DNA of 62,270 nucleotides, filler included, from Dugesia japonica (Eukaryota), in assembly GCA_001938525.1 (NCBI GenBank). It is 7 parts of 7 records of this genome, joined end to end, with 100 filler letters (N's around TTAATTAATTAA, not from the genome) between each part and the next. Parts side by side here need not be neighbours in the genome. Positions count along the whole stretch, not along the records: positions 53,352 to 62,270 come from MQRL01605860.1; 6 more parts are not named here. One strand, 5' to 3'. Position 1 is the first letter of the stretch; each line of letters opens with the position of its first letter. Below, one piece after another: positions 1 through 62,270 of this stretch. The translations under genes and the position numbers were made by a program. The notes below the pieces were generated by a model, which saw only the letters and a program-made list of their open reading frames with translations, did no database searches and was not told the origin of the DNA.

Positions 1-1349
1 AAATCTGAATTCTCAAATCGGTATAACAACATTTTATTTAAAATTTATAAACAATCTACTAAAATGTTAATGAAAAAACGCTTGTAAATCGAATTCAATC
101 ATTTAAAATACTCTTATTTAAATCATAATCGTAACTGTATGATAACTATTCTAATCGGACTTTTCTTGTTGGCTTTTAACAATCAATTCTATTGTTAGAA
201 TATTTTGTGTCAATCGATATNNNNNNNNNNNNNNNNNNNNNNNNNNNNNNNNNNNNNNNNNNNNNNNNNNNNNNNNNNNNNNNNNNNNNNNNNNNNNNNN
301 NNTATTTCGAGTTTCTATGTTTAAATGATATAATATTTCGAGTTTTCAGAATGAGTGATTCAATATCTGAATATAATTTATTGATATAAAATAATAATAT
401 ATATAATTTATTGATAATTTAAATTTGGAATTGAATACGAGAGAATTGATTGAATTCGTAGTTTGCTGGTGACTCGCGATAACANTGTCACTATCTGATA
501 ATCGATTTNTTATTGATAACAAATTGATTATGAAAATGTAAATAGGTGTCAAGTGGTATAGATTTCTTCATTTGTTTTTCACTCAAATTTTGATAAATTA
601 TCGATTTTTTAAATTTACTTTTAAAAATTAATTGTTTTCAGTTTACATATTTAATCCATTAATTAGATCAATTTTTCCATAATTTCCTTTTATTTAATGT
701 TTTTCCAATTCATTTTTCAGGGGAAAATTAAGAGTTTCTAAGTTCTTTTATTTTCATTAATTATTTTACTCTATTTACTAGGTTATGTCGTGATTTGATT
801 TTGTTCATCATTTTTATTGCAATTGTTATCTTGATATACACATTGAAGAATCGTCTCGTTATTTTTGTAAATGAGTAGAGAGACTAATCAAAAGCTATAT
901 AAAAATAATATTGTTAAAAACTTTCACAATTTGTGTATAAATAGAACGGTTTATAAATGAGTGATTTATGATAAAGTATTTCGACTCTTACAACAATGTA
1001 CAAATAATTGAAATCAGTGTTTGTTTCCAGATGATGAATGAACCATCGAAATATATAGGAATTTTAAAATGATTTTTATTAAAGAAATTCTTGTTACTTT
1101 TTTTAGAATTTTTATAATAATTTATCAAGTAAATAAATTTTGACAGTTTTCCCCGTATATTTTTGTGGTTTTACTTGGTTTTCATCGATCTAAATTATTC
1201 ATACAATTTTAAATTAAATAAAATGAGGGGATTGGTCTTAGAGACTTAATTATTTTTCATTGGAAAAATGGACTAAATGGATGAACAACAGTTACTGAAA
1301 TCTGCGTTGTATGAGGTGTGGGAACCAAAAAGTTATATTTTTACCCTTA

Positions 1350-1945
1350 AAAATTATGAAACTCAAATATACATATTTGTATATTAAAAATCCAGTGATA
1401 TTTCTTTGTTCGTGATGCTCAAAATTTTAAACCTCAAAACTAATGATTCAGATTTATATTAATTTTATTAAAAGTTAAAAAAATTCGAAAGATTTAATAA
1501 AAATAATTCAGAAAATGGCCAAGAAAAGTATACAAAAATGGTCAACTTCAATGATTATAATTTTAAAAGTTTTAATGAAAAATATTAAAACATTCAATGA
1601 AATAATATATTAAAAACCCAGTGGTGTTTATATGTTTGAGCGTGATGCTCGAAATTTTAAACTAAAACTAAAAGACAAAAGCATGAAGATTGAACATTAT
1701 AAGACAACTTCCTGAAGTAATTGATGTGCCAAATATGGCGTGCGGTTGGTGGAGAAATCAAAGTGGACAAGAGGTATGTTTACAACAGGGAGAAAGAGAG
1801 CAGGTTGAAGGCAACCACTGACCTGAAATGTCTTCTCGATACTCACATTTCAGAAGATTTTGATCCGCAGTCAAAAAATCGTTGTTTGTGCCTGTTTTAC
1901 AAACATTACAGATTGTACTGCAATATTGTTTTTTCTGTGGGCTGA
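1350..1945 (+). mobile_element. Deleted relative of the same Helitron family, opposite orientation
   Basis: Shares the repeat (CCAGTG...GTGATGCTC) and the segment CAACTTCCTGAAG.AATTGAT...AAATCAAAG.GGAC with the reverse complement of 6300-6420. Confidence 0.7.
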
Positions 1946-2444
1946 GAACCAATTACACGCCTAACGACCAAGTCTTTAAATTAGAATACAACTTTAAAAA
2001 AAATAGAAACTATTCCTTCAAATAATTTAAATTGATTTGGTTACATTTTAAGAAATTGGTATTTGAATTTTATTTTTAAAGAATTTACTAATTAAAAACT
2101 TTTTGAAAACAATTTAAACACAAAATTTTACTTGTATTTTTAAATTGTCACACTGAATATAAAATAGGTAGTCTAAGAATCAACCATATATTTATGTTAT
2201 CCCGTATTTCTGCAAAATTTCAGATTTCCATATAACCAAAATAGTCATGTTTCGAATATAAATAACTTCGAAAAGATACGAGCTAAGAAAAGGAACATAA
2301 GTGAGATCTCTTTACTTTCAGCTATTTTAGAGTTCATAGATATTAGAGTTAGAAAATCGGCCGAAATTTCACATTTTATATTTGTCAAAAATATTGGATT
2401 GAATTTTTATTTTATAAGTCTCTTACCGAATTATATTTTCACAG

Positions 2445-2615
2445 GGTTATTTCAAAAATGTTGCTCAATTTTGTTGCCGGTATGATTATCCGAAAAAATG
2501 GGAAGTGATTTATAAAAAGAATCTGAATGATATGGAATCGGATGATTTGATAGATGACGATGACGCCCATCATGTTTTATTTAAAAATGAAAAGATTTGC
2601 AATGAAAATACGTAG
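2445..2615 (+). CDS. Possible terminal exon, weakly like a DHHC palmitoyltransferase C-terminus
   Basis: TTTTCACAG acceptor, then GYFKNVAQFCCRYDYPKKWEVIY...ENT*. Upstream exons could not be built. Confidence 0.3.
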   Translation, partial: GYFKNVAQFCCRYDYPKKWEVIYKKNLNDMESDDLIDDDDAHHVLFKNEKICNENT

Positions 2616-3057
2616 ATTTATTAAATGTGATATCGTTTTAATATCTACTTTATTTGCTTTCAATTTTATATTTAATTTCTGTTGATAGCAATTTGAATTT
2701 TTTTATCTTGGTGCTGCAAATATGATACAAATTTTATTGGCTAAATATAAAATATTAACTTTGTTGTAATTAATAATTTTTAAGGATAATTTTGCACTTA
2801 TAATGACGAATCTAATTTTTCAAAATTTCGATTCCTTAAAAGAGCACTGAAATTTATCAAATTTAGAATTCAAAATATAAATGATCAAGACTAGTGATAA
2901 GAGAAAATCTAAACTTCAAATTTAATCTATTTCTGCATGTGACAGTTAATTTTTCAATTAGATAAAAGTTTGATATTCTTGAATATTATTTTTGTTAAAA
3001 AGATATAATTTAAACTGATAAATTCATATTTGAAAATTACTTTTCTCTAAACAGATA

Positions 3058-4043
3058 CAGTAAAATCTTCAACTGCGCTGTAGATACGTTTTTCAAGCAC
3101 AGCACTAAAAACGAAATCTCGCAAGGTGAACCAGGGTTGATATACAATTATTGGTTCGGTTCCGGATATTAGAGAAAATTCAAAAATAAAATAAGTCTTT
3201 ATTCAATGTATTAGTTAAATTGAAAACCTCACAACTCTCCATAAATTTTTATATTAATAAGTTTTAAAATAAAAAGGATTAAGAATAATATATAGTATTC
3301 AAACAAATAATCTGAGAAATTCAATTTCAGTTGTCAATAAAATGTTTAAAAAAATATTGAATATAATTTTAAAAAATATTTTTACTTTTCATAAATTTTT
3401 AATTGTTTGTAAACATAATTTCATAAAATAAATTTTATACTTTTAAAATTTTTCCTAATATAATATATAGAAATTATTTAAATAAATTGTATTTATAAAA
3501 TGTTTTATATATTTAAAATTTGTTTTTACTTTTTTACAATAATTTTACAATAGAATGTTCCCAGATATTTTAAAATCTATGAATGACTCTTACACAATGA
3601 CTAATTTATTTGAATTAATATAAACATATAAAANNNNNNNNNNNNNNNNNNNNNNNNNNNNNNNNNNNNNNNNNNNNNNNNNNNNNNNNNNNNNNNNNNN
3701 NNNNNNNNNNNNNNNNNNNNNNNNNNNNNNNNNNNNNNNNNNNNNNNNNNNNNNNNNNNNNNNNNNNNNNNNNNNNNNNNNNNNNNNNNNNNNNNNNNNN
3801 NNNNNNNNNNNNNNNCTGTAACTTGTGGAAAAAGTCTTGTTAACAGTGATTGTTTACGGAATTTTTGTTTTTTTTTATATTTTAGTCTATAAGGCTAAAG
3901 CTCAAAATTCGGGGATCACTATTTTTGGTTTCTTATATTCGTTATTTCACGGGATTCATCAACATGCATCAACTAATTTTTTTGTTACAAATTAAAAAAC
4001 AGCGCAGCTATGATTTTTTTACCGCGCAGATCGAAGTTTTGGT
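3058..4043. mobile_element. Non-autonomous pogo/Tc1-like element
   Basis: Imperfect TIRs CAGTAAAATCTTCAACTGCGC and GCGCAGATCGAAGTTTTGG, flanked by TA. Confidence 0.5.
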
Positions 4044-5484
4044 ATTAAATACTTGGGTTACTGTATTTAAAAATTCTTTCTTTTAAAAGTAGTTCACATT
4101 TTTAAACTTGTTTAATTAAATATGGTAAGTTATTATTTAAAATTTTAAAAATAATTAAAGTAGTGCAAGTCTTTTTGTATCGAAAATTTAATTTGTAAAT
4201 TTTACTGATGTATAATATCCATTTTCTATAATTTGTTAATTTATTTTATGTAAAATGGATATCTAGGGACTATTATCTGATAATTGGAGGAAACAATTCA
4301 ATTAGTCTTTCAATGGTAAGCAAATTAACTAGTATTTCGCATTTTTCTTCACTTTTCTTTTTAAATGATACCACTTCATTTTATGTGCGTCTTCTGTCTC
4401 TTATAAAAGATTTTATATGGNNNNNNNNNNNNNNNNNNNNNNNNNNNNNNNNNNNNNNNATTTTGAATATGCGATGTTTTTTGCAATAAAACCTGTCTTA
4501 TTATTAGTTATTCTAAAAGCAGGATTAATACTAGTTGATTTCAATTTTTTTCCAAAAAAAATTCCTATTCAAAAGTATACAAATATAAATAATTTCCAAA
4601 TAAAAAAATTTCAAATAAAATATTTCTAAATAAAAAGAAGTGATGTCCTGAAATTTTAATTCAATGATTTTAATTTTATGTTAAAAATTTTATAATATAT
4701 AAATCTTAAAATATAATTAAATTTTTACTAAAATTATGTCTAAATTTTAGATTAAAAAATCATAGTAAAAAACATTTCAAATTAAAAAATTTTCCAATTT
4801 TTAAATATTTGTTGTTAAAATAACTATAACTTATTTTAATTAACCCAAAAATTAATTAGCCAATCAGAAATAGTTATAAAGAAGAAAATTGTGGTAATGG
4901 ATTTTTCTATGCATATTTTGCCCTGTTTAATCGGGTTGGTCATTCCAGTGTTTGTTAAATAAAACTTTATTTTTTAAGAGAGTTTTGAAAGTGTTTTTAG
5001 GTTTTCAGAATTTTACTATTAATAAATTAATATTAATTAAATTAATCAAATAAATTAGTAACTGGCAAATAAATAAATNNNNNNNNATAAAGAAAAAGTT
5101 TTCAACAATTACTCAATATCGTGGAAGAAATTAGCTACTCGGAAGAAATTGAAAGAAGTGTTGTAGAAAAAAAATCTGCAGTTTCAGTTATAATTTGTTT
5201 TTCTGGTAATAAAAATTTTTAAGAACAAAGTTATTGAGTAGATTGAACTGACACCCGCTACATGCCCATGTCTTTCGATTGCTTAACTGTTGTTATCCTA
5301 TGATTCAAATTCATCTGAATATGCTCAACACATGGTTGTGAATTTTATTTAGAATACTCTAACCCTGAATGTGTTTATATGAGTGATATAGTAATTTAAA
5401 TGTGTCTAATTGCAACAGAGCACATTGAATTTTAAATATTTTAATAGTTGTTTTCATTTTGTTACTTAAGTTTATTGTTTAAAA

Positions 5485-7518: not shown

Positions 7519-8453
7519 TGTTGGGGATTCACCTGAGTTGGATGTTAAGAAAAGGATGGCTGGGAAAAAACAGCCCTCGGGGAATCCTTTCAAGAATTTG
7601 AATCCAACACCCCTCAGTTGGATATTCAGTGCAGAGCGGTTGACATTCAACCTATACCGGAGGTTCACACTCGTACACCTTTAATTTGGGTTCATTAATT
7701 GCCCTTATAGACATAGATACAAAATTGGACAAAAGTTATCAAAACATCTATTAGTATTACATCTTATATGTCTTCCATCACACCAGGATCTAACCACTGA
7801 TTCGGGTCAGTCCCCCAAAAGTCAAACGCGGCAGTATCGTCATTGTCATCACACTGCGTCCACACAGGGTTTCCCATTTGGCTGGACAGGTCGGCTATGT
7901 ATTGCTTCAAGAATTCTATCTTTCTTTGTAATGTTTGTTTATTTTGTATTTCAAGAGCCATATTTTGGGCAGCCAAGTCACTCTGTTTTTAGACTATTAA
8001 ATCTAATTTCTTTATTAATCGGTTCCTCTGGGTGAGATGTTTTAGGATGACCTGTTCGGTCTTACGTTTTAAATGGCGTTCTAACAATAATCGTCGCATA
8101 ATCCGGTGACACCGTCGCAAACTTGTCGGGAATACGATTCGTGGCACTAAATGAAAAGTATAGTTAAGTCGGCTAAAACCAATTTTAAAAACAGAGAAGC
8201 AAATTAGAGTTGATGCAATTAAAACAATGTATTAAAGACAATCAAAATCATAAACGCGATAGCTCACGAGCATTTGGTCTGGGTACCTTTATCTACCAAG
8301 AGTGGGGGCAAAGGAATGGCTGTTCGCAACTTCAGGATATTCTCTATTAACTGATTCTCGCGCTCCTGGTATGACTTGATGAATTCGGTGAGGGATCCGA
8401 CTTGTGCTTTCCATACCCTTTCCTGCTTCTGGGTTGCTTCTATCTCTGATTTG
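7519..8453 (-). mobile_element. Copy B of the cassette element (3' part, cut by the contig end)
   Basis: Contains the ORF3 C-terminus (8264-8453, ...LVDKGTQTKCS*), ORF4 (7764-8146, premature TAA at ~7990) and the same 3' terminus. It interrupts a Helitron-associated repeat unit. Confidence 0.85.
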
Positions 8454-8554: not shown

Positions 8555-9300
8555 CAGAGCCATTTGAAACAGTATGTGTAGACATCACAGAACCATTAAC
8601 AACAGTAGCCGGTTATTCCTACATCTTAAGAATAATAGACGTATACTCCATGTATGTATCATTAATCCCGATGAAAAATATTACCGCAAAGGAGATCACA
8701 AAATCTATACTAGAAAGATGGATATCAAATTTTGGAATACCTAAAATCATTCATTCAGGCAATGGAACATAATTTAAGTCATCATCGATGAACAGATTAT
8801 GCGAGGAGCTACAGATAAATCAATCATATTCATCTCCATATTACCATGANNNNNNNNNNNNNNNNNNNNNNNNNNNNNNNNNNNNNNNNNNNNNNNNNNN
8901 NNNNNNNNNNNNNNNNNNNNNNNNNNNNNNNNNNNNNNNNNNNNNNNNNNNNNNNNNNNNNNNNNNNNNNNNNNNNNNNNNNNNNNNNNNNNNNNNNNNN
9001 NNNNNNNNNNNNNNNNNNNNNNNNNNNNNNNNNNNNNNNNNNNNNNNNNNNNNNNNNNNNNNNNNNNNNNNNNNNNNNNNNNNNNNNNNNNNNNNNNNNN
9101 NNNNNNNNNNNNNNNNNNNNNNNNNNNNNNNNNNNNNTAAAAATACCGGAAGAACCACGAACAGAACAAAACAAAGCCAAAGTAGGAGATTTGGTTATGG
9201 TAAAAACCAACTAGAAGAGATTCTCAGGACCATGGAAAGTTAATAATATTTTACCTAATAATAATTTAGAGCTTTCACTGAACAATAAAATAAGAAATTA
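8555..9300 (+). pseudogene. Gypsy integrase remnant
   Basis: Reads PFETVCVDIT...WISNFGIPKIIHSGNG...SSPYYH, with stops and a gap. Confidence 0.85.
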
Positions 9301-12809: not shown

Positions 12810-14117
12810 TTGTCACACGAAGCGTATTTCTTAAATCAAATAAATCGATATTTGAGAATTGCAGTGTAAACTAATCGAATCAAAATATTGGAAATAAAAT
12901 ATTGGAAAGATTTGGATGGTTAATTAAAGATGATAAATTTCTTCCCCCTGAATTGTATAAGGTTCTTAAAGTGGTTGGTTCAGAACCATCCAAGTTGTAT
13001 GGTCTTTCTAAAGTCCATAAGAGTAATGTTCCTATAAAACATGTGTTATCTATGATACACATAACTCAGATTAATCTTGTTAAGTTTTTAGATAAGAAAA
13101 TTAAGCCTTTAATCGACCACAAGGATAGCTTTGATTTTTTAAATTTTATTTCTAACTCTGAAGCTGTTAGTAGTTCTGAATATATGGTATATTCTGATGT
13201 TGCTAGTTTATTTATAAATGTTTCATTAGAGGAAACTATTATTCTTTGTTGTATATTATGGAAAAAACTTGTCTTAGCATGATTTATTAAGTGTAATTGA
13301 TTTTTTAGAGCTTTAGACTATTGCTACGTTTAATGTACATTTTGTTTAATGATGAATGGTACAAACAAAGTTGATGGAGTTACTATGGGTTCATCTCTTG
13401 CACCTACACTAGCTTCTTTATTTTTGTCAAAATATTGAGGAAAATATTGATTTGTTTATTGGAAATAAGCCGCTAGTGTATAAACGCTATGTGGATGATA
13501 TATTTCTGGTTTTTAGCAACCAAATAGATATTGACCAATTCATAAACTATATGCATTTGTTACATAGCAACATTAGATTCACTACAGAAATGGAATGAAA
13601 ATCTAAACTTTCTTTCCTTGACTTATTAATAGAAAAAAAGTCTAAACATTATGAAACAGAGATTTATCACAAACCAACGAATACAGGCTTGTATACATCT
13701 GGTAATTTTTGTGAATCTCGTTATAAGTATAATATGATTAAAGGAATGTTGTATAGATCATGGAATCTTTACTTTTCATACTTGAAGTCTTGTGCTAATA
13801 TTCAAAGTTTAACATCTTTACTAAATAAAAAGGATTATTGTAAATCAATTGTGGAGAAATTAAATCGTGAAACAATTGATAAAATCGTTCATAAAAATAA
13901 TGAAATTAAAGATGTTACTAATAATGATAATAATTTAAACTGTGAAAATATTATCAAAGACCCAGATAAAATAGATAAGTNTAGTTACGTATTAACTGTT
14001 CTGTATTCGGAAGGATTTAAACAATTTAAGAGTGAATTGTTAAAATATAGAAATGTCTCTTTGAATTTGAAAATCGGTAATAAATTTGGAACACTTCTAG
14101 TTAAATCTAATTTTTAA
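12810..14117 (+). mobile_element. Penelope-like element reverse transcriptase remnant
   Basis: Motifs LYGLSKVHK, DVASLFINV, DGVTMGSSLAP, YKRYVDDIF, SFLDLLI and YHKPT, with frameshifts. Confidence 0.9.
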
Positions 14118-26953: not shown

Positions 26954-29450
26954 TACTTTTTCTGCTCTAGCATGACACAAAAGATGGTGTATCCTTAATA
27001 TAATCTTTTCTACTTTATTATCAGGTATCCATGTTCTTACATCATTCTCACTAAAATTGCCTTTTTTGTCTTGTATTTAATGTTCTTGTTTTTAATTTTC
27101 CAATTTTGGGATCTTCATGCGACATTAGACATTGTGTATATGTACCGCATTCATTAATAGACAACATATCCGCATTTGTATGAAGTCATCCTTCTTTATA
27201 TTCCAATTTTATATCTAAACTGATCAAATAATTAATCCAAGTTTGAAACTGTGATTTCACGGGATTCTTGGTATTTAGCATAAAAGTGATGGATTTATGG
27301 TCTGTTCTGAGGACAAACTTCATTCCATTTAAGTAATGTTTGAAATGAATACAAAAGTAGTAAATTGCTAGCAATTCTTTCCGTGTAGTTCAATATTTTT
27401 TCTAATGACTCGTCATTGCATGAGACCCATATGCAATTACTCTTTCTTGCCCATTGTTGTTCTTTGAAGATAGTACTGCCCCAAGCGTATCAAAACTCGA
27501 ATCCGTGTCCAAATTAAATTCTCTATTTATATCTGGAAAATATAATATTGGAGACATCATTAGTGTTTCTTTTATTCCATTAAAAATTTCTTCTAATTCA
27601 TTCGCCCATTTAATATTCTTGTTACTTGGCTCACTATACAGTTGTTCAGCAATCTAGCTTTTTTCGAATAATCTTTAATAAACTTGCGATAGTAATTGCA
27701 AATTCCTAAAAAGATTCTCATTTTCTTAACGCAGTTTGGTTTATCAAAGTTCTTAATTGCTTCTATTTTATTTGGATCTGTTTTGACATTTTCTTTATTG
27801 ATAATGTGTCCCAAAAGTTTGATTTCTTTTTGCATGAATTGACATTTCTCTGGATTAACTTTTAGACCAGCCTTTTTAATTTCTGTCATTACTTTATTGG
27901 CTACTTTATAGTGTTGCTCCTTTGATTTGGTAAATATGAGAATATCATCTAGATAAATTATTGCTTCTTTTATTTTCCGGATCACTTTATTCATCATTTC
28001 CTCGAACGTCCGTGGTGCTGCTGAAATTCCAAAAGGCATTTTATTGAAACAAAATTGCCCTTGTTTGGTGGAAAAGCCGTCTTTTCTTGAGAATCTTCAC
28101 TGAGTTGCAATTGATAATATGCATTTCCCAAGTCTATTGAGCCAAAATACTGCGTAACTTCCAAAGCATCCAGCATTTAGTCCACATTTTGCATAGGAAA
28201 AGCTTGTCCTTTTGTTATTGCTTGAGCTGTCTAAAATCTAAGCATGATAGTATATTCTTTTTTTCCTTTTTCCAAATCCAGATTAATGGCCTATTTCATT
28301 GCAAATTAAACTTCTGGATGATACCATTGTCATATAGATTTTTGATGAACTCTTTAATTTTTTCCTCTAGATTCATTGATTAGCGATACGGTTTTATGTT
28401 GATAGGACCTTCTTTAGTGATTATTCGATGCTTTTTTAAGTGTGTACTGCCAATATTCCATTTATATGTCATAGATACATCCTCATTGTTTTGAATAATC
28501 ACAGTCAATCTATGATCTTTGTTAATTTTTAGAATCTTTATTGCTTGTCTCAATTGTTCACCCGTCTGTATCTGCCTTCCAGATGTTTCCTCAATATTGC
28601 AAACAAATTTTTCTCGATGATTATTGATGTCTATCCTGCACTTTTATTTGAAGATGATACTCAAAAGTATTCTGAATTTCGACTCCACTAATTAGATATG
28701 GTAATAATTAATCTCTCTACTATTATAAATATTACTTCCTTGCACACCTTTGAAACTACAACTTCTTGTCTCCAATGAGATTTAATTCGCGCAATGCAAT
28801 CGTTCTTCGCTTTTCTCTAACATTGTTTCTTTGAGTCTATTAAATCCTTTCATGCTCATCACATTTTTATTTGCTCATGTATTTCACAAACAATGAAACT
28901 GTTCTTCCTTGCATTTTTTCATATGAAATTTTTACATTCTGTTTCTCTTCAATTGCTCATATCACTTCTGTTTTGTTAATTTTTGCATCATTTAAATATT
29001 TTCGTTTTAGGAATCTGTAAACCTTTTCTTTCACTTTACTCGTCTCTTACCGTTTTTCAGTCTTTTGAGGACATTCAAACGGTATCTCGTTAAATGAATG
29101 GCTCCAACCAACTTCTCTAGTCACGGAGCCCTGCCTTTTGAATATTTTCTTCTTTGATCTTCATTTTTTATTATGCTCCCAGAAAATATCTCTTCATTCT
29201 TTTATCATAATCTTCTTAAATGGCATGAATTGGTTAGGTCCGAATCCAATCTTTTGTTTGTTGTTCGCTTTTAAAATTGTATTTTCTCTCTTCTAGTCTT
29301 GTGTTATTAATGTGACCTCGTCTTTTACATCTACCAAATAAAATTTCTTTGCACATATTTCTGATGTGACTAATCTTACCGCACCCAAAACATTTTAGTG
29401 GTTTCTTATCTGGACAATTTCTACTTAAATGTTCTTTTTTCATTATTTAT
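26954..29450 (-). mobile_element. Ty3/Gypsy gag-pol, decayed
   Basis: CCHC knuckles (29234-29443), RT motifs IDLGNAYYQL, MPFGISAAP and YLDDILI, and RNase H motif RTDHK. Confidence 0.95.
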
Positions 29451-37011: not shown

Positions 37012-37919
37012 TTAGGTTTTTCGGTTTACACGATACGTTTTACTCCAGATATCCATTAAACAAATTGATGAATGAAATCGAAAAAATATTATTAATGGCA
37101 AGAGTGTATGTGTGATAATGCTCCAAGGAGTTTTTTGGTAATATTTCGTAAAAATTAAGTGTTCGTCGGATCGTTTAGCTTCAAAAATACTAACAATCCA
37201 TAACGCTAAATTGATAACAATTAGAAATGTTACTAAAGATCTTCCGGGTTTGAGCTTTACTTGAATTTCACTAATTGTTCCTTTTCTTGAGCTTTCAAGT
37301 ACAAAAAGAACTTGTATAGATGACTGTATTATTTCTGTAAGAGACTTTAAAATAAACAAAATAATGATCAAAGAATATTTCGGATTGTCTAATCTTATAA
37401 ACGAATCAATTGTTGAAATAAATAAGAAAAGATTATATGAAAAGACACCAGCCAAACCAATTAAAAGAAGATTATCATCCAATGCTTGTTCTTCTGTTAA
37501 CTGTCGGAATTGCAAACTTCTCATTTTAATAAAAGCCCAAATAAGAGTTATAATTCCTGAAATTAAAAGTATTATTTCTGATGATTGATAAACGAGAATC
37601 GATAGAGCCTTTGTTGCTATTTTCTTTCTAAAAAGAAAAAATATAGCAACCCCAACTAAAGTAACCATAAAGAAAAACAATCCAATAAATAGTCCTCGAT
37701 GTGATCTGTGACATTCTGAATATTTAACTCTACTTTCTTCTGTAGGTGCAGTGTACTTGTCCCGATAATGAGGTTCTTTGTATTTTCTCCCAACTTTTTG
37801 AAGCATTTTATAAAATATGGCAGCACTAATTAAACTATATTCAATTGAACAAGGAAATAAATATGGTGACACTGTGTATGATAATTGTTGAGAACAGTTT
37901 GAGTAACTGTCGGTTTCAT
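37012..37919 (-). CDS. otop: Otopetrin family proton channel, terminal exon
   Basis: Motifs SPYLFPCSIEYSLI, GLFIG, KPGRSLVTFLIVINLALW and PLIIFFRFHSSICL. The acceptor TTTAG at 37920-37924 is phase-compatible with the upstream exon. Confidence 0.95.
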
Positions 37920-37997
37920 CTAAATCGAATCAATTATGAATATAAATATTAAAAAAATCTTAAAAAAATTTAAATAATTTAACTATTAAAAAAATAA

Positions 37998-47934: not shown

Positions 47935-48900
47935 AACAGGGACAACAATCAGCAACTATGACATGGAAGAACTTAAGAAGACAATCACAGAAGTGATAAG
48001 ACAGTGTGAAGCGTGCTGAAAGAACAAAGTTAATACTGGGGCAACAAAAGTGACAACAGTAAAATTAAGCGCACATTGTCCATTTGAAAAGATATGGACA
48101 TTTGTGGGCCTTTTCGAGAGACTGTGAACAGACGAAGATATATATGTGGAATAATAGATCAATATAGTCGATATGTAAGCCTAACGGCAATCAGCAAGCA
48201 AGATGATGAGACAATTAAAAAAGTGATAATGGAAAAATGGATCCTGAGATTTGAAGCTCCGAGAGAAGTTCATGTGGACAGTGGTAAAACATTTGAATCG
48301 AAAAACTTCAGGAGTCTGGTGGAATCGATGAACATGAAAGTATATTTTTCAAGTCCATACCATCACAATACAAACGGGATAATAGAGAGACGATTCCGCA
48401 CAATCAGAGACTGTATTAACGCAGCCGCAGAGGAAGATAGAAGAAAGGATTGGAATAACAGAATACCGGAGATTGAATACATGATGAATGCGACAAGGCA
48501 AAAGATATTGGGGATATCACCAGCAGAATTAATATTTGGTAGGAGAATTCACAGAGAACAATGGTTCGACAGCCAAAAAGATGACAAAGAGTCGATGGAA
48601 GAAACACCTACAAAAAGACAATTTCAAGTGGGAGACGAAGTATTGATAAAACTAGAACAAAAGACAATGAAAGATATGCTGGCCCATAAAAGATAGCGTA
48701 GAAGGTTCATGAGAGAGGATATCGTATACGAAATGCAAATGGAAAATTGCTAGAAGGGAACGTAGAAAAACTTAAACAATTCTTTTAATCGAGGGGGATG
48801 TAAGTATTAAAAATTGAAATTGCAATTTAAAGTTTGAAAAAGAAAATGCTAAAAAAGATTTCAAGAATTTTTTAAAAATATTTAAACAACTTTGTTTAAA
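47935..48900 (+). mobile_element. Gypsy integrase, polypurine tract and start of 3' LTR
   Basis: CEAC zinc finger, MDICGP, HVDSG and SPYHHNTNGIIER. PPT GAGGGGGA is followed by TGTAAG at 48799. Confidence 0.92.
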
Positions 48901-50147: not shown

Positions 50148-51303
50148 TTAGGTTGTAAAAATATAAAAGGCGGTTTTCGAAATTTTCGTGTTTTTATGAT
50201 TTTGTAAATAAAATTTTTTATTATTTTGAAGTGTGTTTTCCAATTAACGTAATATAATAAAAATTTTACTTTAGTTAATTATTGAAAGTTTTTACTAGTA
50301 TTTCTAGAAACCATTAATAATTAACAGATTAGGATAATTTTGCTATATCAATCGAAATATCAATCATTTATTTAACAAAGAAGCAACAAGTGAACGTACC
50401 ACTGAACGCTGAAATTTAAAACTGGAAATAAAAGTCTTGAAGATGAACAGAACTCTCCAATTGAATGAATTCGTCGAAACTGATCCGCGTACAACTGTTT
50501 GAGAACTTACTTGTGACCTAGAAGTATCACTCTGATCGTTTCCAATCATTTGAGAGAAATTTAGAAATCAAAGCAACTTAAGAAATGAATACCTCACGAA
50601 TTAACATAAATTCAAAAATATCGTCGTTTGGAGGTATCTTAAGCAGTTCTTTCACCCAACAAAACGCGTTTCTTGATAGGATTGATGCGTCCTACGAAAA
50701 GTGGATACTTTACGACAAACATCGACGTCTTTTGCAATGATTAGATCGAAATTAGGCTACTAAATATTTTTCTAAGCCAAAGCTGCGCCGACGGAAGGTT
50801 ATGATGACTGTTTAATGGTCTTCTACAGGTTTGGTCAATTACAACTTCTGGAAACAATTTTGATCAAACCGATGAAGTTAACAAGAAACTGAAGTTGGGC
50901 TACCGAGCCATTGTCAACAGAATGAAGCCACTATTTCTCCATAACAACGCCCGGCCACACCTCACACAATCTACACTACAAAATTTTAACCAGTTAGGCT
51001 ATAAAATTTTGCCTCGGCCTGTTTACTCACCATACCTCTCGCTTACTGATGATTTTTTCAAACATTTGAACAAGTTATTGAACGGGAAAATCTTAAACAA
51101 CCGAAATGATGTTATTAATGCCTTCAGAGATTTCATTGCATACAGAACTCCCGATTTCTATTCTATTTGGATAAATATACTTGTTGGTAGATATGTGTAC
51201 ATTGTTATGGGCTTTATTTTGATTAAAAAATTTTGGTTTAAGCTGAGATTTGTTCATTTAAAATTGAAGATTGAAAACCGCCATTTATTTATTTATAATC
51301 TAA
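50148..51303 (+). mobile_element. Near full-length mariner, inactivated
   Basis: TIRs with TA TSDs. Motifs EKWILYD, HNNARPH and YSPYLSLTD. Confidence 0.92.
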
Positions 51304-51379
51304 TACACTAATTCAAAAACTAGATGGAAAAAATGTCAGTTCATAAATTAAAATAATAGGCTTCGAATGAATACATTTA

Positions 51380-53069: not shown

Positions 53070-53657
53070 TAATGTGAATTAAATATCAATATTATAACAG
53101 TTGTTAAGCTGGGACTAGATAGTTCAATGATAAATATCGTTATTTTGTTATTATAGGGTTTTCGCAAATATAAGTAATTTTATAATTACAATTATTGTGA
53201 GAATAATTGTTGAACTTAATCATTGATCGCATTTGAGATTTCATTAAAATANNNNNNNNNNNNNNNNNNNNNNNNNNNNNNNNNNNNNNNNNNNNTTAAT
53301 TAATTAANNNNNNNNNNNNNNNNNNNNNNNNNNNNNNNNNNNNNNNNNNNNTATTCTTTTATTGATTTGCCACAAAAAAATTCCCCGAATCAATCTGTCT
53401 ATTTAATTTACCTCACAATTATGATCAGAACCCAATACAAAATCAGAACCATTTTACTATTTTCGAAATTTATTTCATTCATTATTATTTATTTTTATTN
53501 TGGTGGTATTGTTCTATGGCTCACTAATTTTTCGAAAATTTATTTGTTATTAGTAGATGAATAGGTAAGTATCAGACCAGTTGAGAATAAAACTTAATCT
53601 ATTCACATAACAAGCACGGTATTTTGTATATTACATAATCACTTTCATGAAATTTTA

Positions 53658-53773
53658 GGGGGTGCAGACATAATTTCCCCTTAGAAATATTTTCTTCTTG
53701 GAAATAATATCCCCTTGGAAATAATAAATAAAATAAATAATTATTTCCAAGAGGAAATTATTGCATTAACCCA
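53658..53773. repeat. Small inverted-repeat element
   Basis: ATAATTTCCCCTTAGAAATA / TATTTCCAAGAGGAAATTAT, plus internal CTTGGAAATAATA repeats. Confidence 0.6.
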
Positions 53774-54132
53774 ATTTTAGCATTATATAGAACGATACGT
53801 AATTGCTATGTTACATAATAAATATTTTTATTATCATTGTTTATCTTATTATATGATTATTTACAATTTTTTTATAACAACTATCAGAGATATATTATCT
53901 ATTAAATATATAACACCACAAGTAAATATTTCTTATTATTAAACGGGAACAAGCCAAAAAGCTAAATCAACGGAAAAGAATAGCAGGACCGTTATAATCA
54001 CCATTAACGAAATATGAAGTATGAAATCAACATTAGAAGAAAACGAAATAAAATCAAAGGTGAATGTGAAGTTTATAATTACAATTATTGTGAGAATAAT
54101 TGTTGGACTTAACCATTGATCGGATTTGAGAT

Positions 54133-54310
54133 TTCATTAAAATAAGATAAGGCTTCGATCAAAACAAAATTTATTTGTAAACAAAGTTCAAATTTTCGAC
54201 AATAGTCTTCTTTCAGGAAGAAGTCTCCTGAAGAAGACTAATGTCGAAAATTTGAACTTTGTTTACAAATAAATTTTGTTTTGATCGAAGCCTTATCTTA
54301 TTTTAATGAA
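54133..54310. repeat. Near-perfect 178-bp palindrome containing hammerhead cores
   Basis: ~85-bp arms differing at about 2 positions, with a 7-nt spacer. Confidence 0.95.
54221..54259 (+). ncRNA. Minimal type I hammerhead ribozyme (Penelope-type)
   Basis: AAGTCTC-CTGAAGA-A-GAC TAAT GTC-GAAA-ATTT-GAACTT: core boxes, stem II and an imperfect stem I. Confidence 0.6.
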
Positions 54311-56437
54311 TGTAAAGAACCGGGTAACATAAAAACCACTTACGCATGGAAATTAAGAACAATTAGTAATTTAATAATAAACAACGAAGAAAAGCGATAA
54401 GAAAAAATAATTAATTAGCAAAAGGAAATTAATTAATTTTAAAATAAAAAAGAAGAGAAATTAGTTAAAAATCTGTTTTATCAAGATAACTTTGTTCAAG
54501 GAAGTCGGAAAGAGCCCGGACAAGAAAAAATGAAGAGAGAACATCAAGATACAATTGAAATTACGAAGAGAAAAAACTTACCACCTTCCATAAGGGTACT
54601 GCAAGGTTTCCAAGATCCAGCCAATAAGAAACCTAAAAACAAAAATAGAACAAAGACACCAGTGTCAAGTGTCATGATAAAAATAACTACCAACGGAATC
54701 ACAGAAAAGTCTGTAAAATTCCAGAAAAGTAGCATCAATGCAAATAAAAACGGATTGTTTCAATTTAAAAATAACGGACCAATGTCAAACAAGTTGGGGT
54801 GTCTCAGAAACCCTATATAAAGGATCCCTGATTTCAACATTTTCATCTAAAAAATCAAGTTTCTAATAAAAAATTTTAACGATAAAATTTTTAACAGAAT
54901 ATAACTGTTCACCAAAGAAATTTCACCAGATAACAAGTTAGTACCTGGCCAGAAGAATTCGATTCCACCAGAATACGATTTAGTAAAAAACTTGATTAAT
55001 TAGATCACGATTAATTTTATTTCAAGAGTACCAAATCACCTCCGAAGAAATCTAATAATTCTAGTGTTGGAAATAGCGAGAACCGTTGTAGACAGCTTAT
55101 AAGAATAGTAAAAGTAAATTGTTATTTTTGATTATAAAAGTGATAAATTTGTTAATGTCGAATATTATTTAACTTAATAAAAGTAGTTTCTGTTATGCGA
55201 TTGGGCATTAATTTTTCTTTTAACTGATAATTTTAGAAAGCATTGGGAAATTGACCTCAAATCAAGCTAAGAATCCCTTTAAAAAATTATTGATTATTGC
55301 AAAGGCAAATATTTTTTTTTGTGGCGCACAAATAATAAAATATGGGAAAAATTGGTAATTTCAAAAGGCATGTTCTGGATTAACTAAAATTCGAGTATTC
55401 AGACAGGGTTTGATGGTTTTTGACAATTTTGCGTTACCCAGCTAGACTAAAATATCATAATAAAATAATCGAACAAATAAACCATTTCTAATTATTTATT
55501 AAAAAAAAACAGTAAATAGTAAAGCAACTCACCTCAATAAATTCCAATGAAATATGATCAAGAAGAATTGGCAATAAAATAAATTCCAAAATAATCATAG
55601 CATTCACTCTAAATCTCCTACTCATTATTGACAGCGGATTTTCAGAATCAGATGCTATAAGAGTAAAATTTTCCTTTAAGTCAATTAGGTACCATGTAAC
55701 ATATCTTACCCGTATGGTGAGAACTCCCAAGTAAAATTCAGCCAGATAAATTAATATTCATGCTAGTCGCAGTAGAGTGACTAATAGATATTCATTATTT
55801 AAATCAGATTATCTGCCCTACACACATACTTAAACTAACAGGCACACACTCCAACATGTAAAATCCAAATAGCTAATTTAAACAATGTTGCCACGCAACA
55901 ATAATAGGCAGAAATACAAAATCTCAAAAATAATAATTTTTAATTTGTTTTCTATGTTTTCTTCATGAATCTATTGATGAATAATAATATAGTAACAACT
56001 GTCGGGATCGGTATTACTAGAAGCTGGTCATGGTCCGCAATGATGGAGTTAGTAAATAAATAGGCATCGATTTATCATGATATTAAGAAAATTGAATTAA
56101 CATTTGGGTAGCCACTAATCAGGATCAGGATAGGGGTTAACCCCAGGGATATCAACCACGATATGGCCATGCTTTTATGCGTTAATGAGTAACTATATTG
56201 TGGATAAAAAGGGGGGAAATGAATTATTTGCGTTATGTGTTTTTGCGGTAAAATTAATTATTATGTTAAATACCCCTAATTCCATAACCAAAGTGCGATA
56301 ATCCTAGATAACTTACTTCCTTTAATGACTCCCGTTTCATGATACGACTCCTTAATTAAACCAAATGCTACAATAGTTTAATTCAGCAAGTAAATCAAGA
56401 GGCAAAGATCATAGTTAATCAGTTCATTTTTTTTAGT

Positions 56438-56620
56438 ATGTCAGATAAATTATATCATACCTTACGCTGGATTGGAAAACAGCGACAAAGTTGTCGGACA
56501 AAACAGTTGATAGCGCACCTCCTCACCAAGGGGCAAATTGAACACCCTGACGAAACAGATCTTTGCTGTTTCGCCGAGTTGTACCCTGTAGAGGTGAAAG
56601 TAGACTTGGACGAGGAGTGA
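56438..56620 (+). CDS. Cassette ORF1, 60 aa, unknown
   Basis: ATG lies 1 nt after the acceptor TTTTTTTTAG (56436). AATAAA follows at 56659. Confidence 0.5.
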   Translation: MSDKLYHTLRWIGKQRQSCRTKQLIAHLLTKGQIEHPDETDLCCFAELYPVEVKVDLDEE

Positions 56621-56748
56621 CATCGATTGTGTATTAGTATCCGTAAGGTGATTTCCTGAATAAAACTCTGTGTATTGTATTAATAATTGCATTTAAATGA
56701 CTCTTAAAATTTTATTTGTGGTTTATTATTATTTCATTATTCTTAGAA

Positions 56749-57105
56749 ATGGAGTCAATATGGGAGAGAACCGTAGATAGGAGAACGCGGCGAATCGTTT
56801 TCCGACGGCACCGCAATCCCCACAGTCGTGATGCAGGGATTCTAGCGGATAGAAGCAATCTGCCTCCCATAGAGTCAATTGTCGCACGTATAAGAGACTT
56901 CGGCGAGCGGCAGCAGTACCAGAATTGGACCAGGCCAGATCGCACCTTCGCGACCTCTTTCCAGTACCAGCCTCCTGCCCCTCTCCCCGCTCCGGCCATA
57001 CAGGCGTTCATAACTAACCTTCTTTGGGGGATTAGAGAACCGTCTGGAGTCATTGACAGTGAAAATACAGCCCCTAATATCGAAAATATTAATCCTGATA
57101 CCTAA
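56749..57105 (+). CDS. Cassette ORF2, 118 aa, Arg-rich N-terminus and Pro-rich segment, unknown
   Basis: Acceptor TTCTTAG (56746) is followed by AA-ATG. The frame reads MESIWERTVDRRTRRIVFRRHR...QPPAPLPAPA. AATAAA at 57124. Confidence 0.6.
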   Translation: MESIWERTVDRRTRRIVFRRHRNPHSRDAGILADRSNLPPIESIVARIRDFGERQQYQNWTRPDRTFATSFQYQPPAPLPAPAIQAFITNLLWGIREPSGVIDSENTAPNIENINPDT

Positions 57106-57255
57106 ATTTTGTCTGTTGCTTAAAATAAATGAATAGGTGTTTAAATTTTGTCTTCTTGTATTATATTTCTTTCGTTGCACAAGATAAGTTTTCGTTTTAT
57201 AAATATTATTCAACTAGACCTTGTAATTGTCATATTTAACAATCATAATATTCAG

Positions 57256-57614
57256 TGCATTCTTCTCTGAACAATTCTCAAGCTCCCCATAAAAAGTTAC
57301 GTGAGACAAGTGAAGATCTCGATCTCACATGGGATCTTTATAGATTAGCCAAAAGGCGATGGGAAACAGAGATCGCCGCGGCCGACGCTAAAGTAAAACG
57401 CTGCAAGCAAAAATGTTTAACTTTTAAAGCCGAACTGGACGCCACCCAGAAGCAAGAGAGGGTGTGGAAGTCCCAGGTTGAAACATTTACCAAGATTGTC
57501 CATTCTTATCAGGAGCGGGAGAATAGTTTGATGGAAAATGTATTGAAGCTGAGAGCAGCTACTCCTTTGGCCCCTCTCTGGATAGATAAGGGCACTCAGA
57601 CCAACCGCTCCTGA
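57256..57614 (+). CDS. Cassette ORF3, ~119 aa predicted coiled-coil protein ending in LC8-type motif DKGTQT
   Basis: Phase-1 acceptor ATTCAG|TG. The C-terminal part is conserved in copy B with synonymous changes. AATAAA at 57643. Confidence 0.75.
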
Positions 57615-57725
57615 GTGTCATGTTTACTAATTGATTGAGTTTAATAAACTATTTGTATCTTTGCTAATTGTCTTTTCTAATTATGAACTTGAGTTTTCGT
57701 CAGTTTAATTATACTTTTCATTCAG

Positions 57726-58108
57726 TGCCACGAATTAACTTTCCCAATAGTATCCGGAGGTGCCATAGAATTATGCGCCGCTTACTGGTCGAACGGCACC
57801 TAAAACTTAAGACAAATAGGGCATTTATGAAACAATTGGATCAGTGTGATCAATTAATTAAAAAATTAGATTTAATTGTCAAAAAGCAAAATGACCTGGC
57901 GGCTCAAACTAAAGCTTTAGAAACCGAAACCAAACAACTGTTGATGCGGAAAATAGAATTCTTGAAACAATACATCGCCGATCTGACCCGCCAAATAGGT
58001 AATCCAACCTGGATCCAGTGGAATGATAATGGCGATATCGCCGCCTTTAACTTCTCGATAACCGACCCGGATCAGAGGTTAGATCCCGGAGCACTGGAAC
58101 TGTTATAA
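57726..58108 (+). CDS. Cassette ORF4, ~127 aa basic, predicted coiled-coil protein with acidic aromatic tail
   Basis: Acceptor TTTTCATTCAG|TG is conserved in copy B as TTTTCATTTAG|TG. RKIEFLKQYIADL is identical in both copies. ATTAAA at 58201 is conserved. Confidence 0.75.
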
Positions 58109-59099
58109 ATAATTTTTGTGTGTGTATGAAAGAAAATATATATAACTAACCTCGTATTTTCTTCTTTGCTGACAAGAACAGAGAAAAGATTGAACCCGAA
58201 ATTAAAGGTTTTTGGGTGTGTACCTCTAATCAAGAATGACGTTAACCACCATGAACTGAAGACCTACTCTAGGGACGGTAGGATAAATTCTTGAACGGGT
58301 TCCCCTGAGGGCTGTTTTTTCCCCAGCCACTTTATTTTTCATTCAATTCAGGTGGGACCCCAACATTATTATCCTCATAAATAAATCTAAGAAGTCATTA
58401 TACTTAAAAAAATGACAAAAAAAATAATTTCTCAACTTAGGAATAACATATACATAATCAAAAAATAAAAAGATTTATCACAAAATTTATTTCATCATTT
58501 AAACTAAAATCATCGTCTTCTTCTTTGGCAAGCTGAAACCATTAAAACAGCAATTAAATACGTATTATTTAATTATTAATTTTGTAATGATAAACCTGAT
58601 GATTTATTGATTCNAAGTTAGTCTGCATAACTTTGTTTGGTTCTTCATCACCGTCTCCATCTTTGTTGGATGCATTTAAATTTTATGTGCGTTTAGAAAA
58701 ACGAGTTAAAATTTTTGTGTGATTAGTGATAGTATTTTTAAAATCTTTTGTTGAAAAGAAAGATTTAAAGTATTGATGGAGAATTTAAATAACAAATATT
58801 TTTTTCGATGATAAATTAAAGCTTTTGAGTAAAAGAAAACTTTAAATCAATAAATAAAATGTTGAAATAAATTAAATTAAATTAATTTTAAATAAATTAA
58901 GTTTAAATTAAAAAGAATTCATAAATGATAATTTGATAATAAAGTAAATTTTTATTAAAATTTGTAGCGTAAAAGAAAATTTGTCTTAAATTTTAAATAA
59001 ATAAATAAAATGTTTGAAATAAATTAAGTTAAATTTAGATAAATAAATTACAGTTTTCGATTTTGAAAAATGATCACCAATGAAAACACAGGATTTTAA

Positions 59100-59690
59100 T
59101 ATTTTTAAATAAATAAATAATGTTAAGCATAGTTTTTATTTGAATAAATTTTATGGAATTGAATTTTGATTTTGATAATCCTAGTTCACAAAACTCATCT
59201 AACATATTGATATCTATTTGTTTTAAACTGATCCCTTTCCCCTTCATTGTCATAATAGCACCTGATTTCTTCAAACTTTAGCACTTTGGCCTTAAGAATA
59301 CCCATTCAGTATAATCTTTACTTTCTCTCTCATCTTTAAACAATCCAATTTTGTTGGTCACATAGTTGGAATAGAGTGGATAATCTTTTGAGTAATTGCT
59401 TGTATCCAAGAGACCATCCGATTTTATATAAGAACCGAGTTAGTTTCTTTCCGCCCCAGTACATGATAAGAAAACGCTTTCCGTATCTCCAGCAATAATA
59501 TCAATTTTTCAATGAAATTGTTAACAATATCTTTCTAACTCTTCATTTTGGAGCCTATACATTCGTAATTTACTCAAATCCTGAACCACCTGACCAATAA
59601 AACTTGGTCTATCTATGTATATGTAGTTTTTGATTCTTAGTCGAATGGTATCAAAAGATTATCATTATATTGTCATTATATATGAACATT
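59100..59690 (-). pseudogene. Polinton/Maverick-type protein-primed DNA polymerase B, C-terminal remnant
   Basis: One frame with stops: DRPSFIGQVVQDLSKLRMY...GDTES...LDTSNYSKDYPLYS...IGLFKDE...EWVFLRPK...MKGKGI. Confidence 0.88.
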
Positions 59691-59879
59691 ATCATTAAAA
59701 TTTAATTTTTCTAGAAAAAATATTTTTTATCGCTGTGTATTAAACAATGTATAGGTATCATTTTATTCAGAGTTGAATGGGAATAGTTTCATCATAGTAA
59801 TCCACTTAATGAAAAATAAATTAATTTGTAACGTTGAGATTTCTTCGGAAGGAAATAACTTTAATAAATTAATTTAATA

Positions 59880-61090
59880 AATTTTAAGGGATATGTTGAG
59901 TTTTCGACAATTTGTTTAGTGGTTTTATGAGGATTTTCATGGATTTTAATGAGAATTTTTAAATTTTACGAATATAAATGAAATTATGGGTATTTCATCA
60001 ATTTAAAAGTTTTTAATTATTGGGTTTTTAATGAATTTTGAAGTATTTATTGTGAATTTATATGTGTTTTATAATGAAATTTTATATAATGTCATAATAA
60101 GTTTGACAAGGGTTTATAGTGCTTTTATATCGGTTTGAAGGATATTATTTAATATTTCATGAATTTTAAGGGGTTTTATCGGTTTCCATGAATTTTATAT
60201 GGTTTATGTGGATTTTTCGTGATTTCTAAGTAATTATTTGGTTTTCATAAGTAATTTGTGGTGGGTTTATAGATGCTTTATAAGGATATTTTATATGAGT
60301 TTGAAATGATGTTACGGGACTATATACGGGTTTCAATGACTTTATCTAATGTTTCATGAAATTTCATGAGATTTAATAGATTTTAGGTAAGTTTAAGTAA
60401 TATTTTGGGGTTTACATGAATTTTAAGGGATATATGAAGGTTTTATAGCGGTTTTATAAAAATAATTTATGAGTTTTTAGTACGTTAATAGGAGTTTTCT
60501 ATAGTTTTCGTGAATATTAATGGATTTACGGATTAATAGATATTTATAAGGATATTTTATATTAGTTTTATATGATGGTATAAAGAGTTTTTAATTGTTT
60601 ATATGGTTTTTTAATGGGTTTTAAGGACTTTATCGAATATTTCATGGACTTTTTAAGGACTTTATGGAGATTTTGTGAATTTTCAGAGATTTATGGGAGT
60701 TTTCTCCAATTTAATGATTCATGGAAATTTCATGAATTTTATGGGATATATGTTACTTTTTACAATTTTTAGTGATTTTATGGGATTTTCGTGAATTCCA
60801 GGGATTATGAAGGTTTCATAACTTTTAAGGATTAATGAAGATTTCATGAATTTTAATGGGATTCTTGTGGAATTTTATTGATTTATTGTGTTTCATAAGA
60901 GTTTTATAATGGTATTTTATATGAGTTTTATATGCTATTATACTAATAATAATTATTTTAACATTGTTTTATCGAGACATTCTACTGGTTTTGAAGGACT
61001 TTATCGAATATTTCATGAATATTTAGTGGTTTTGTGGGGTTTTCGTGAAACTTAGGGATTCATAGAAATTTGAACGCTGATAACTGAATT
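59880..61090. repeat. Strand-asymmetric (T/G-rich) degenerate repeat tract
   Basis: Recurrent TTTCATGAATTTTAAGGG and AAGGACTTTATCGAATATTTCATG, with higher-order blocks near 60270, 60540 and 60900. Confidence 0.75.
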
Positions 61091-61437
61091 TTAAGAATTT
61101 ATTGATTCAATAATTTATATGAATTAGGTTTAAATTTAACTGATTTATTAAAACTTATTAATGCTATTATTTTCTGATACTATTTTATATATACCTATAA
61201 GGTTAACAAGTTTCTTTTTATAGTTAAGAATTAATTATATAATTAAATTATATTAAGAGTATTAAGAATATTAATGTTTGTTTAATCCCATCCATTTAAT
61301 TATAAAGTATATATGTGTATGTATATTAATTAATTTGGGGTATAAACAAATACAAATATTGCTTCGTCATAACTTAAAAACTAAGAATGTAAGTTAAGTA
61401 GGTAGATAGTAGCGCACTGTATCACCCCCCTCCCCTC

Positions 61438-61846
61438 TCAAGGTCAAATTTTTCAAGGTCACTGATACAGTATACTTGTATCTGATTGGTACGTGATTTA
61501 GTATACTCAATTCTTATTAGTGGAAAATTTGAAGGTCGAATTTTCAAGGTCAAACTGATACAGTATACTCTATTTTAATTGGTCGAAATATTTTCAAGGT
61601 CAAAGTGATATAGTACCCTGTGTTCTGATTGGTTGATGGGCTTCAAGGTCAATGTGATATAGTATACTGCGTTGGATTGGTTGATGGGGTTCAAGGTCAA
61701 AGTGATATAGTACACTGCGTTGGATTGGTTGATGAAGTTCAATGTCAAAGTGATACAGTATTCTATGTTCTGATTGATTGATGTGGTTCAAGGTCAAAGC
61801 GATATAGTATCCTATAATGTGATTAGTCAAAATTTTTCAAGGTCAT
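61438..61846 (+). repeat. 48-50 bp tandem array with TCAAGGTCA and GATTGG motifs
   Basis: Units start at 61544, 61594, 61643, 61691, 61739 and 61788, with partial units on both sides. Confidence 0.92.
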
Positions 61847-61994
61847 TTGATTAACTTCATATTTAAATTCCCCAGGGATACTCAATATTTCAATTTCCCA
61901 CGCAAAATTAATATTAATATAATTATTTATTTATTTTGTTTTTGTTTTTTAATATTAGAATTTAAACAAAGTTTTTACTTTATTATTAAATCGT

Positions 61995-62240
61995 CATTTA
62001 AAATTTAAAACAAAAATAATCNNTCGTTATTTAAAACAAAAATAATCATTCGTTATTAAATTTTCATTAAAAATTTAAAACAAAAATAATCGTTCGCTAT
62101 TTTATTTTCATCCAAAATTTAAAACAAAAATAATCACTCGTTATTAAATTACCATTTAAAATTTTAAACAAAATAATCATTCATTATTAAATTTTTATTC
62201 AAAATTTAAAACAAAAATAATCATTCGTTATTAAATCTTT
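61995..62240 (+). repeat. ~44-bp tandem repeat
   Basis: AAAATTTAAAACAAAAATAATCATTCGTTATTAAA, about 6 copies. Confidence 0.9.
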
Positions 62241-62270
62241 ATCCAACCACACAAAAATTTCGATTCGCTT

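Follow-up and report, generated by a model that had tools for sequence, protein, structure and literature searches.

Four small reading frames, each with its own splice acceptor and poly(A) signal, in a putative LTR-type element of the planarian Dugesia japonica

This study concerns a repeated element in a 62,270-nt stretch of DNA from Dugesia japonica (GenBank assembly GCA_001938525.1), hereafter the window. The window consists of seven parts of seven records, joined by runs of 100 filler N's, and the element lies in the last part (positions 53,352 to 62,270, from MQRL01605860.1). A preliminary description made from the sequence alone had placed it at 56000-58365 and had read it as a solo long terminal repeat (LTR) of a large Gypsy-type element, or as a satellite element, with a cassette of four small genes. 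The evidence base comprised the 62-kb window, eight sequencing runs (four of DNA contigs and four of RNA) and the literature. The window is AT-rich animal DNA with about 25% GC.

Four open reading frames (ORFs) lie on one strand, each between an AG splice acceptor and a poly(A) hexamer, and together they form four units:

56435..56664, + strand: unit 1, with acceptor AG at 56436, ORF1 at 56438-56620 (60 amino acids, own ATG) and AATAAA at 56659
56745..57129, + strand: unit 2, with acceptor AG at 56746, ORF2 at 56749-57105 (118 amino acids, own ATG) and AATAAA at 57124
57254..57648, + strand: unit 3, with acceptor AG at 57255, ORF3 at 57256-57614 counted from TG (phase 1) and AATAAA at 57643
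57724..58206, + strand: unit 4, with acceptor AG at 57725, ORF4 at 57726-58108 counted from TG (phase 1) and ATTAAA at 58201

The ORFs have a GC content of 41-52%, compared with 23-25% in the spacers, which are 111-150 nt long. ORF1 contains an EHxDETDxxC stretch, and ORF2 has an Arg-rich start and a Pro-rich middle. The frames, the AT-rich spacers and every acceptor and hexamer were found where the preliminary description had placed them. It had overlooked that ORF3 and ORF4 lack an ATG at their acceptors and begin with TG.

A strict scan for the acceptor-ORF-poly(A) pattern recovered 3/4 units and, with both strands scanned, no further one in the rest of the 62 kb; unit 3 escaped because its pyrimidine tract is weak. 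Under the same scan simulated elements yielded one unit in 8/2000 cases and never two. The chance of a single poly(A) hexamer per spacer is 0.08-0.31, so that each one is weak by itself, and the chance of all four is about 0.001 if they are independent. No gag, pol or transposase was found inside the element, as had been claimed. All four frames end in a stop codon ahead of the spacer. Donor-like GTRA sites are absent around the ends of ORF3 and ORF4, and those near the ends of ORF1 and ORF2 are weak. These observations support the view that the ORFs are not exons of one ordinary host gene.

A second copy is present in the window:

7519..8452, - strand: copy 2 (diverged, partial), with the end of ORF3, acceptor 4, ORF4, the last poly(A) signal and the right terminus

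Copy 2 is 69% identical to the main copy over 947 columns, and its left part is lost at an N gap. Acceptor 4 is conserved together with its TG (20/25 nt), whereas identity falls to 43% in the untranslated region after ORF4 and to 35% beyond the end. The expected conservation of acceptors and poly(A) signals held for acceptor 4 and the last signal and failed for signal 3, which is altered in copy 2.

Comparison of the two copies gave a pN/pS of 0.22 for ORF3 (bootstrap 0.12-0.35, 59 codons) and 0.26 for ORF4 (bootstrap 0.18-0.37, 123 codons), values that come from a single pair of copies, cover these two ORFs only, and have silent sites near saturation (pS 0.72-0.73), so that corrected ratios would be lower but unstable. 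Differences at the three codon positions number 17/4/30 in ORF3 and 31/21/60 in ORF4, and an off-frame control (ORF3 +1, one frame) gave a pS of 0.25 and a pN of 0.32. Judged by this pair, ORF3 and ORF4 are under purifying selection; the ratio of about 1 that had been named as a refuting outcome was not found.

Matches to the element numbered 3654, 4817, 4000 and 534 contigs in the four DNA contig runs. In run X1 near-identical contigs have a depth of 7-9. Depth reaches 1198-5419 in the bins of ORF3 and ORF4 and 157,730 in the terminal bin, compared with 239 for spacer 2, 272 after ORF4 and a low 308-438 in the Pro-rich middle of ORF2. Unit 1 has a depth of 1284-2664 in three runs, compared with 32-105 upstream. 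As sequence matches, these depths, which are not copy numbers, show that the ORFs are conserved above the spacers and that the terminal motif is common to far more sequences. Among the matches listed (32 of 13,075 contig pieces and 24 of 1717 loose ends), diverged contigs span spacer 1 to ORF2, ORF2 to acceptor 3 and ORF3 to acceptor 4, and such unit-bridging contigs also occur in X8, a run labelled with another organism. By these alignments the element is a high-copy family with a conserved ORF order.

The right end is defined by two features:

58358..58365, + strand: right terminus CCCCAACA, identical in copy 2, with unrelated flanks
58297..58360, + strand: predicted terminal stem-loop, U5-like, in the same register in both copies

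CCCCAACA is the end in 2/2 window copies, and the last 81 nt are common to both. Its layout, a poly(A) signal followed by a GT-rich stretch and YNYAACA, fits the LTR end described in PMC3601003. For LTRs of Ty3/Gypsy (Metaviridae) elements the left-end consensus is TGTTRNR. ATTAAA at 58201 and the GT-rich tract are kept in copy 2. In the predicted stem 11 positions are paired in both copies, two of them changed on both sides and two on one side; a comparison of two sequences makes this thin evidence. The z-scores are -2.7 and -2.0 for the last 81 nt and weaker, -1.4 and -1.3, on 141-nt windows. The reading as a mobile element in many copies, with an LTR-type right end and coding constraint on its ORFs, is supported.

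Other features were noted near this end. A hairpin with a G-rich loop lies just before the terminal motif (58260-58284, and 7601-7625 in copy 2); its stem letters differ between the copies, and loop-loop pairing with downstream C runs would be possible. A hammerhead at 58257-58290 was considered and dropped, the core being incomplete and without an Rfam match there. The Rfam scan gave one chance match only. The right flank (58416-58600) is a repeat too, with a depth of about 1300-2300 in three DNA runs.

Two positions were weighed as the left end:

56000..56009, + strand: TGTCGGGATC, the left end of the preliminary description; best local fit to an LTR left end, not common to other copies
56206..56219, + strand: candidate polypurine tract, 14 nt of purines that include a G6 run and are followed immediately by TG at 56220

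Position 56000 fits 6/7 of TGTTRNR and has an inverted match of 8/10 to the right end, and a TG with an inverted match that good arises in 177/500 simulated 4.85-kb regions. Contigs read A at 56001 (182/195, 261/261 and 170/170 depth units in three runs), and a contig of about 88% identity spans 55891-56125, across 56000. The DNA runs show no depth step at 56000 or 56220, and the empty-site joint 55999-58366 is absent among the matches listed (15 of 34 joints). No target-site duplication (TSD) of 4-6 bp was found, the left flank reading CAAC/ACAAC and the right flank TTAT/TTATT. Of the proposed TG...CA ends, then, the right one stands and the left one is not confirmed, being unshared and without a TSD. 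A solo LTR of 2.37 kb at 56000-58365 is therefore not upheld, since copies run through 56000 without its TG and do not share both termini. TG sites preceded by TTAT(T) further left were also considered as ends and set aside as too common to single one out.

A purine tract directly before TG is the layout of a polypurine tract. Purine tracts with G6 number two in the window (chance 27/2000), and this one has the same orientation as the cassette. At 56220 only the TG of the consensus fits, and the inverted match to the right end is 3/10. The TG at 56220 is a candidate rival LTR start. The 3' LTR would then measure 2146 bp and have part of the internal region to its left, which would explain the missing TSD. 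An LTR left end further left than 56000 is also possible.

Origins other than an LTR element were weighed as well: a DNA element that is non-autonomous, the remnant of an endogenous virus, or an amplified block of host genes. They would agree with the lack of a TSD, of a primer-binding site (PBS) and of a linked pol, and with the multi-copy left flank. We consider such an origin improbable, because the sharp LTR-type right end is shared much more widely than the ORFs, the searches described below found neither viral nor host homologues, and each ORF stops before its spacer. With no pol linked to it, the element was not filed in Metaviridae.

ORF3 and ORF4 begin AG/TG, directly after the acceptor. 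The sole in-frame ATG of ORF3, at 57531, is lost in copy 2, and the 35 codons upstream of it are constrained. In ORF4 12/15 residues before the first ATG are identical in copy 2, eight of them through different codons. Because of the AG/TG starts and the constraint upstream of ATG, a start codon completed by splicing is predicted. ORF2, ORF3 and ORF4 each need exactly one base from the incoming exon, and ORF1 carries an ATG itself. All four acceptors would be suited by a leader that ends in A, and equally by one with its own phase 1 ATG. The common phase and the split start codon speak specifically for a shared leader. Motif scans gave one candidate close to ORF1:

56352..56395, + strand: candidate promoter and leader donor, with TATA-like TTAATTAA at 56352, A at 56389 and GTAAAT from 56390

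Four more A-preceded donor candidates lie further left or just after 56390.

With moderate confidence we lean towards an LTR-type, high-copy, Gypsy-type element whose four ORFs are expressed by a local leader spliced to alternative last exons. One short leader ending in A would be spliced to one of the four acceptors, and each acceptor with the next poly(A) signal would make one terminal exon, so that each mRNA would carry one ORF. The last A of the leader would complete the start codon of ORF3 and ORF4 (A/TG), and these two proteins would thus be made only from spliced RNA. Acceptor use is coupled to poly(A) use in terminal exons; unspliced genomic RNA could therefore pass the internal signals, and would read past the poly(A) sites left unused. 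The leader most likely would come from a promoter just left of ORF1, with 56390 as candidate donor. Alternatively the 5' leader of the element would be spliced across gag-pol into the 3' LTR. A far-reaching extension, which we hold to be doubtful, is that the LTR of a giant invertebrate Gypsy clade has become a self-contained accessory mini-genome, with an internal promoter, a micro-leader, and at least four orphan proteins made by way of alternative last exons and splice-built starts, so that solo LTRs too, present in hundreds to thousands of copies, could provide the proteins in trans.

A genomic leader belongs to a distinct reading, in which the cassette would lie in the 3' internal region or overlap the 3' LTR. 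As with nef or MMTV sag, splicing from the genomic 5' leader would give access to it, and it would be silent in solo or 5' copies. The purine tract followed by TG at 56220 agrees with this, as do the sequence left of 56000 that is common to other copies, the lack of a TSD and the lack of expression in the RNA runs. Set against it are the absence of a depth step at 56220, where the inverted match is TG/CA only, and the donor-like sites in 58109-58360, of which none of seven is preceded by A (a donor past the PBS falls outside this scope). We regard it as unlikely.

The four units were also compared with an operon resolved by spliced-leader trans-splicing. Flatworm operon cistrons are reported to lie <300 bp apart, and trans-splicing has been described in planarians. 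The spacers of 111-150 nt on one strand, with a poly(A) signal and then an acceptor, match this spacing. However, flatworm spliced leaders are reported to end in AUG, which would be out of frame at 4/4 acceptors, leaving 3, 9, 4 and 25 codons, and a usable start would be missing from ORF3 and ORF4. An operon therefore fails for these two ORFs, and we consider it very improbable.

The orientation of the element was weighed as well. If gag-pol lay on the other strand, 58365 would be the left (TG) end and the cassette an antisense accessory unit, like the antisense ORFs of Retand, Grande and Boty; antisense extra ORFs are a known arrangement. An integrase fragment does lie on the opposite strand beside copy 2, and the few RNA reads on the terminus lean to the opposite strand. 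The integrase is beyond an N gap, though, the strand lean presumes stranded libraries, and the poly(A) signal, GT-rich stretch, stem and purine tract are all oriented with the cassette. There is a small chance, in our estimate, that the cassette is antisense.

Several observations count against a leader-spliced LTR cassette, and to the integrase fragment, the missing TSD and the limits of the selection test the following are added. No TGG (PBS) follows the right end in either copy. AATAAA of unit 3 reads AATACA in copy 2, and ORF4 of copy 2 has one in-frame stop near 7990. The intron from donor 56390 to acceptor 1 would be only 47 nt. When the main copy was compared with most contigs, 26 ORF sites were among 40 differences listed of 1131 (chosen by support); 18/26 are amino-acid changing, as are 11/12 in ORF3 and ORF4. 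Mostly amino-acid changing differences would fit neutral decay of the main copy after insertion. In the four RNA runs, of which 6-26% was covered (1.6-1.9 billion letters per run), the element drew 2, 14, 3 and 17 reads, 36 together, of which 34 are partial and none is 99% alike. They fall mostly on the terminal motif and right flank. No splice joints, transcript starts or transcript ends were found in these four runs, where coverage is almost nil. In X11 and X12 the first mate is mostly on the + strand, which would mean opposite-strand RNA if the library is of the usual stranded type. The element family is close to silent in the four RNA runs, and the main copy looks decaying and silent. PIWI repression of Gypsy elements has been reported in planarians.

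The encoded proteins were said to match nothing recognised, and no family, homologue or fold match was obtained. A near-length search found no homologues of ORF4, ORF3 or ORF1 (longer or fused forms and ORF2 fall outside it). A phmmer search of ORF4 against 1.84 billion proteins returned two bacterial repeat proteins, which were rejected as summed weak stretches. A protein atlas search gave no usable match for ORF4 or ORF1. Sequence matches in Pfam, PHROG and PDB were all below cut-off and coiled-coil-like, ORF2 had no Pfam or PHROG match, and viral and metagenome collections held no loci matching the element. The ORF3 model is a single helix of 93 residues (10-102, pLDDT 86). The ORF4 model (pLDDT 72) combines two helices, one short and one of 60 residues, with a hairpin of low confidence. 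It had no Foldseek match at E 0.001, and its best Z in VIA was 7.0, to generic helices, with none at Z 8. As far as the model goes, these searches show neither a known nor a new fold for ORF4. A membrane or hydrophobic segment is absent in all four proteins, which therefore are not FAST-like fusogens, unlike MDG1 sORF2. The proteins are predicted to be soluble and basic, with long helices in ORF3 and ORF4. By analogy with complex retroviruses, they most likely would have an accessory role in the life cycle of the element, regulating it or acting as scaffolds.

The window also contains an otopetrin exon and scattered reverse transcriptase (RT) and integrase fragments. The large otopetrin exon (37012-37929, - strand; Pfam PF03189, E 2.5e-67, profile 161-434) belongs to a host gene. 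Gypsy-type fragments are two integrase cores at 8575-8850 (+) and 48088-48696 (+) and one RT at 27593-28096 (-). The fragment at 8575-8850 (+) adjoins copy 2, on the opposite strand, with an N gap between. Decayed RT-like frames at 12875-14117 (+) resemble Penelope. A decayed frame at 50400-51311 (+), without a Pfam match for 50808-51308, is presumably a mariner-type transposase remnant. Left of the element, 54133-54310 is a fold-back with nearly perfect 80-nt arms and a minimal-hammerhead-like core (CTGAAGA...GAAA) near 54230. A hydrophobic frame at 55533-55757 (-) has a GTGAGT donor at its end, and a second, decayed one lies at 54500-55000 (-); neither has a Pfam match. Part of the hydrophobic-frame region within 55700-55990 is multi-copy in the DNA runs. 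To the right, 61543-61837 holds six tandem units of 48-50 nt, each with TTCAAGGTCA, which we assume to be a nuclear-receptor-like half site.

LTRs are usually viewed as promoters and terminators without coding content, and the retrotransposons of invertebrates as elements of a simple gag-pol(-env) make-up. If the proposed expression is correct, a Gypsy lineage would have regulation in the style of complex retroviruses, through a selected, splice-controlled multi-gene cassette at the end of an LTR. It would also bring to light families of orphan proteins that escape gene finders, since a genomic ATG is lacking in two of them. The arrangement raises the question of what allows genomic RNA to run past several poly(A) signals. 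Since the host is a planarian, the proteins can be tested by RNAi in a model animal. One giant retrotransposon of planarians reportedly benefits stem cells (PMC13465017, citing Lee 2026).

Several known systems resemble the element in part. HIV nef and MMTV sag are U3 ORFs reached by splicing, each a single gene that ends at the poly(A) site of the LTR. In the adenovirus major late unit, which belongs to a DNA virus, a single leader is combined with alternative acceptors and alternative poly(A) sites. The likeness to all three is one of layout, with no sequence or fold link. Among planarian elements, the Burro-1 LTR reportedly has an internal promoter and spliced transcripts in the extended data of Grohme 2018, which may be prior notice of such an arrangement. 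Burro/GYPSM1 resembles the present element, by description, in its thousands of copies, great length, long LTRs, accessory coding and planarian host, but its BIR, BCL2-like, MATH and Env domains lie in or beside the polyprotein and are not small LTR ORFs (PMC6431247). The eLife table gives six S. mediterranea elements without LTR coordinates. No multi-gene cassette in an invertebrate LTR was found in the literature searched, the main planarian genome paper being outside its scope.

Other precedents come from Drosophila and from antisense ORFs. In the springer subclade of Drosophila errantiviruses the start codon of env is completed by splicing (bioRxiv 10.1101/2023.08.03.551782). That case involves a single gene and a leader that gives AU. 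In the present cassette the leader would supply A, and the recipients would be two of four small ORFs, each with its own poly(A) signal and no membrane segment. The sORF1 and sORF2 of the MDG1 group (Drosophila 412, Mdg1, Stalker2) are small accessory ORFs too, in their case of Metaviridae elements, with an internal poly(A) site and a short one-ORF RNA. They sit after the 5' LTR and ahead of gag, no splicing is involved, and sORF2 is a membrane protein (PMC11952523). The extra ORFs of the plant and fungal Gypsy elements Grande, RIRE2, Retand and Boty are conserved, selected orphans near the 3' LTR; they are internal, antisense and usually single, whereas the four described here are in tandem and apparently sense (PMC7264820). 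The parts of the arrangement have precedents; their combination, in which four orphan ORFs each have a separate acceptor and poly(A) signal at an apparent LTR end, was not found in the literature searched.

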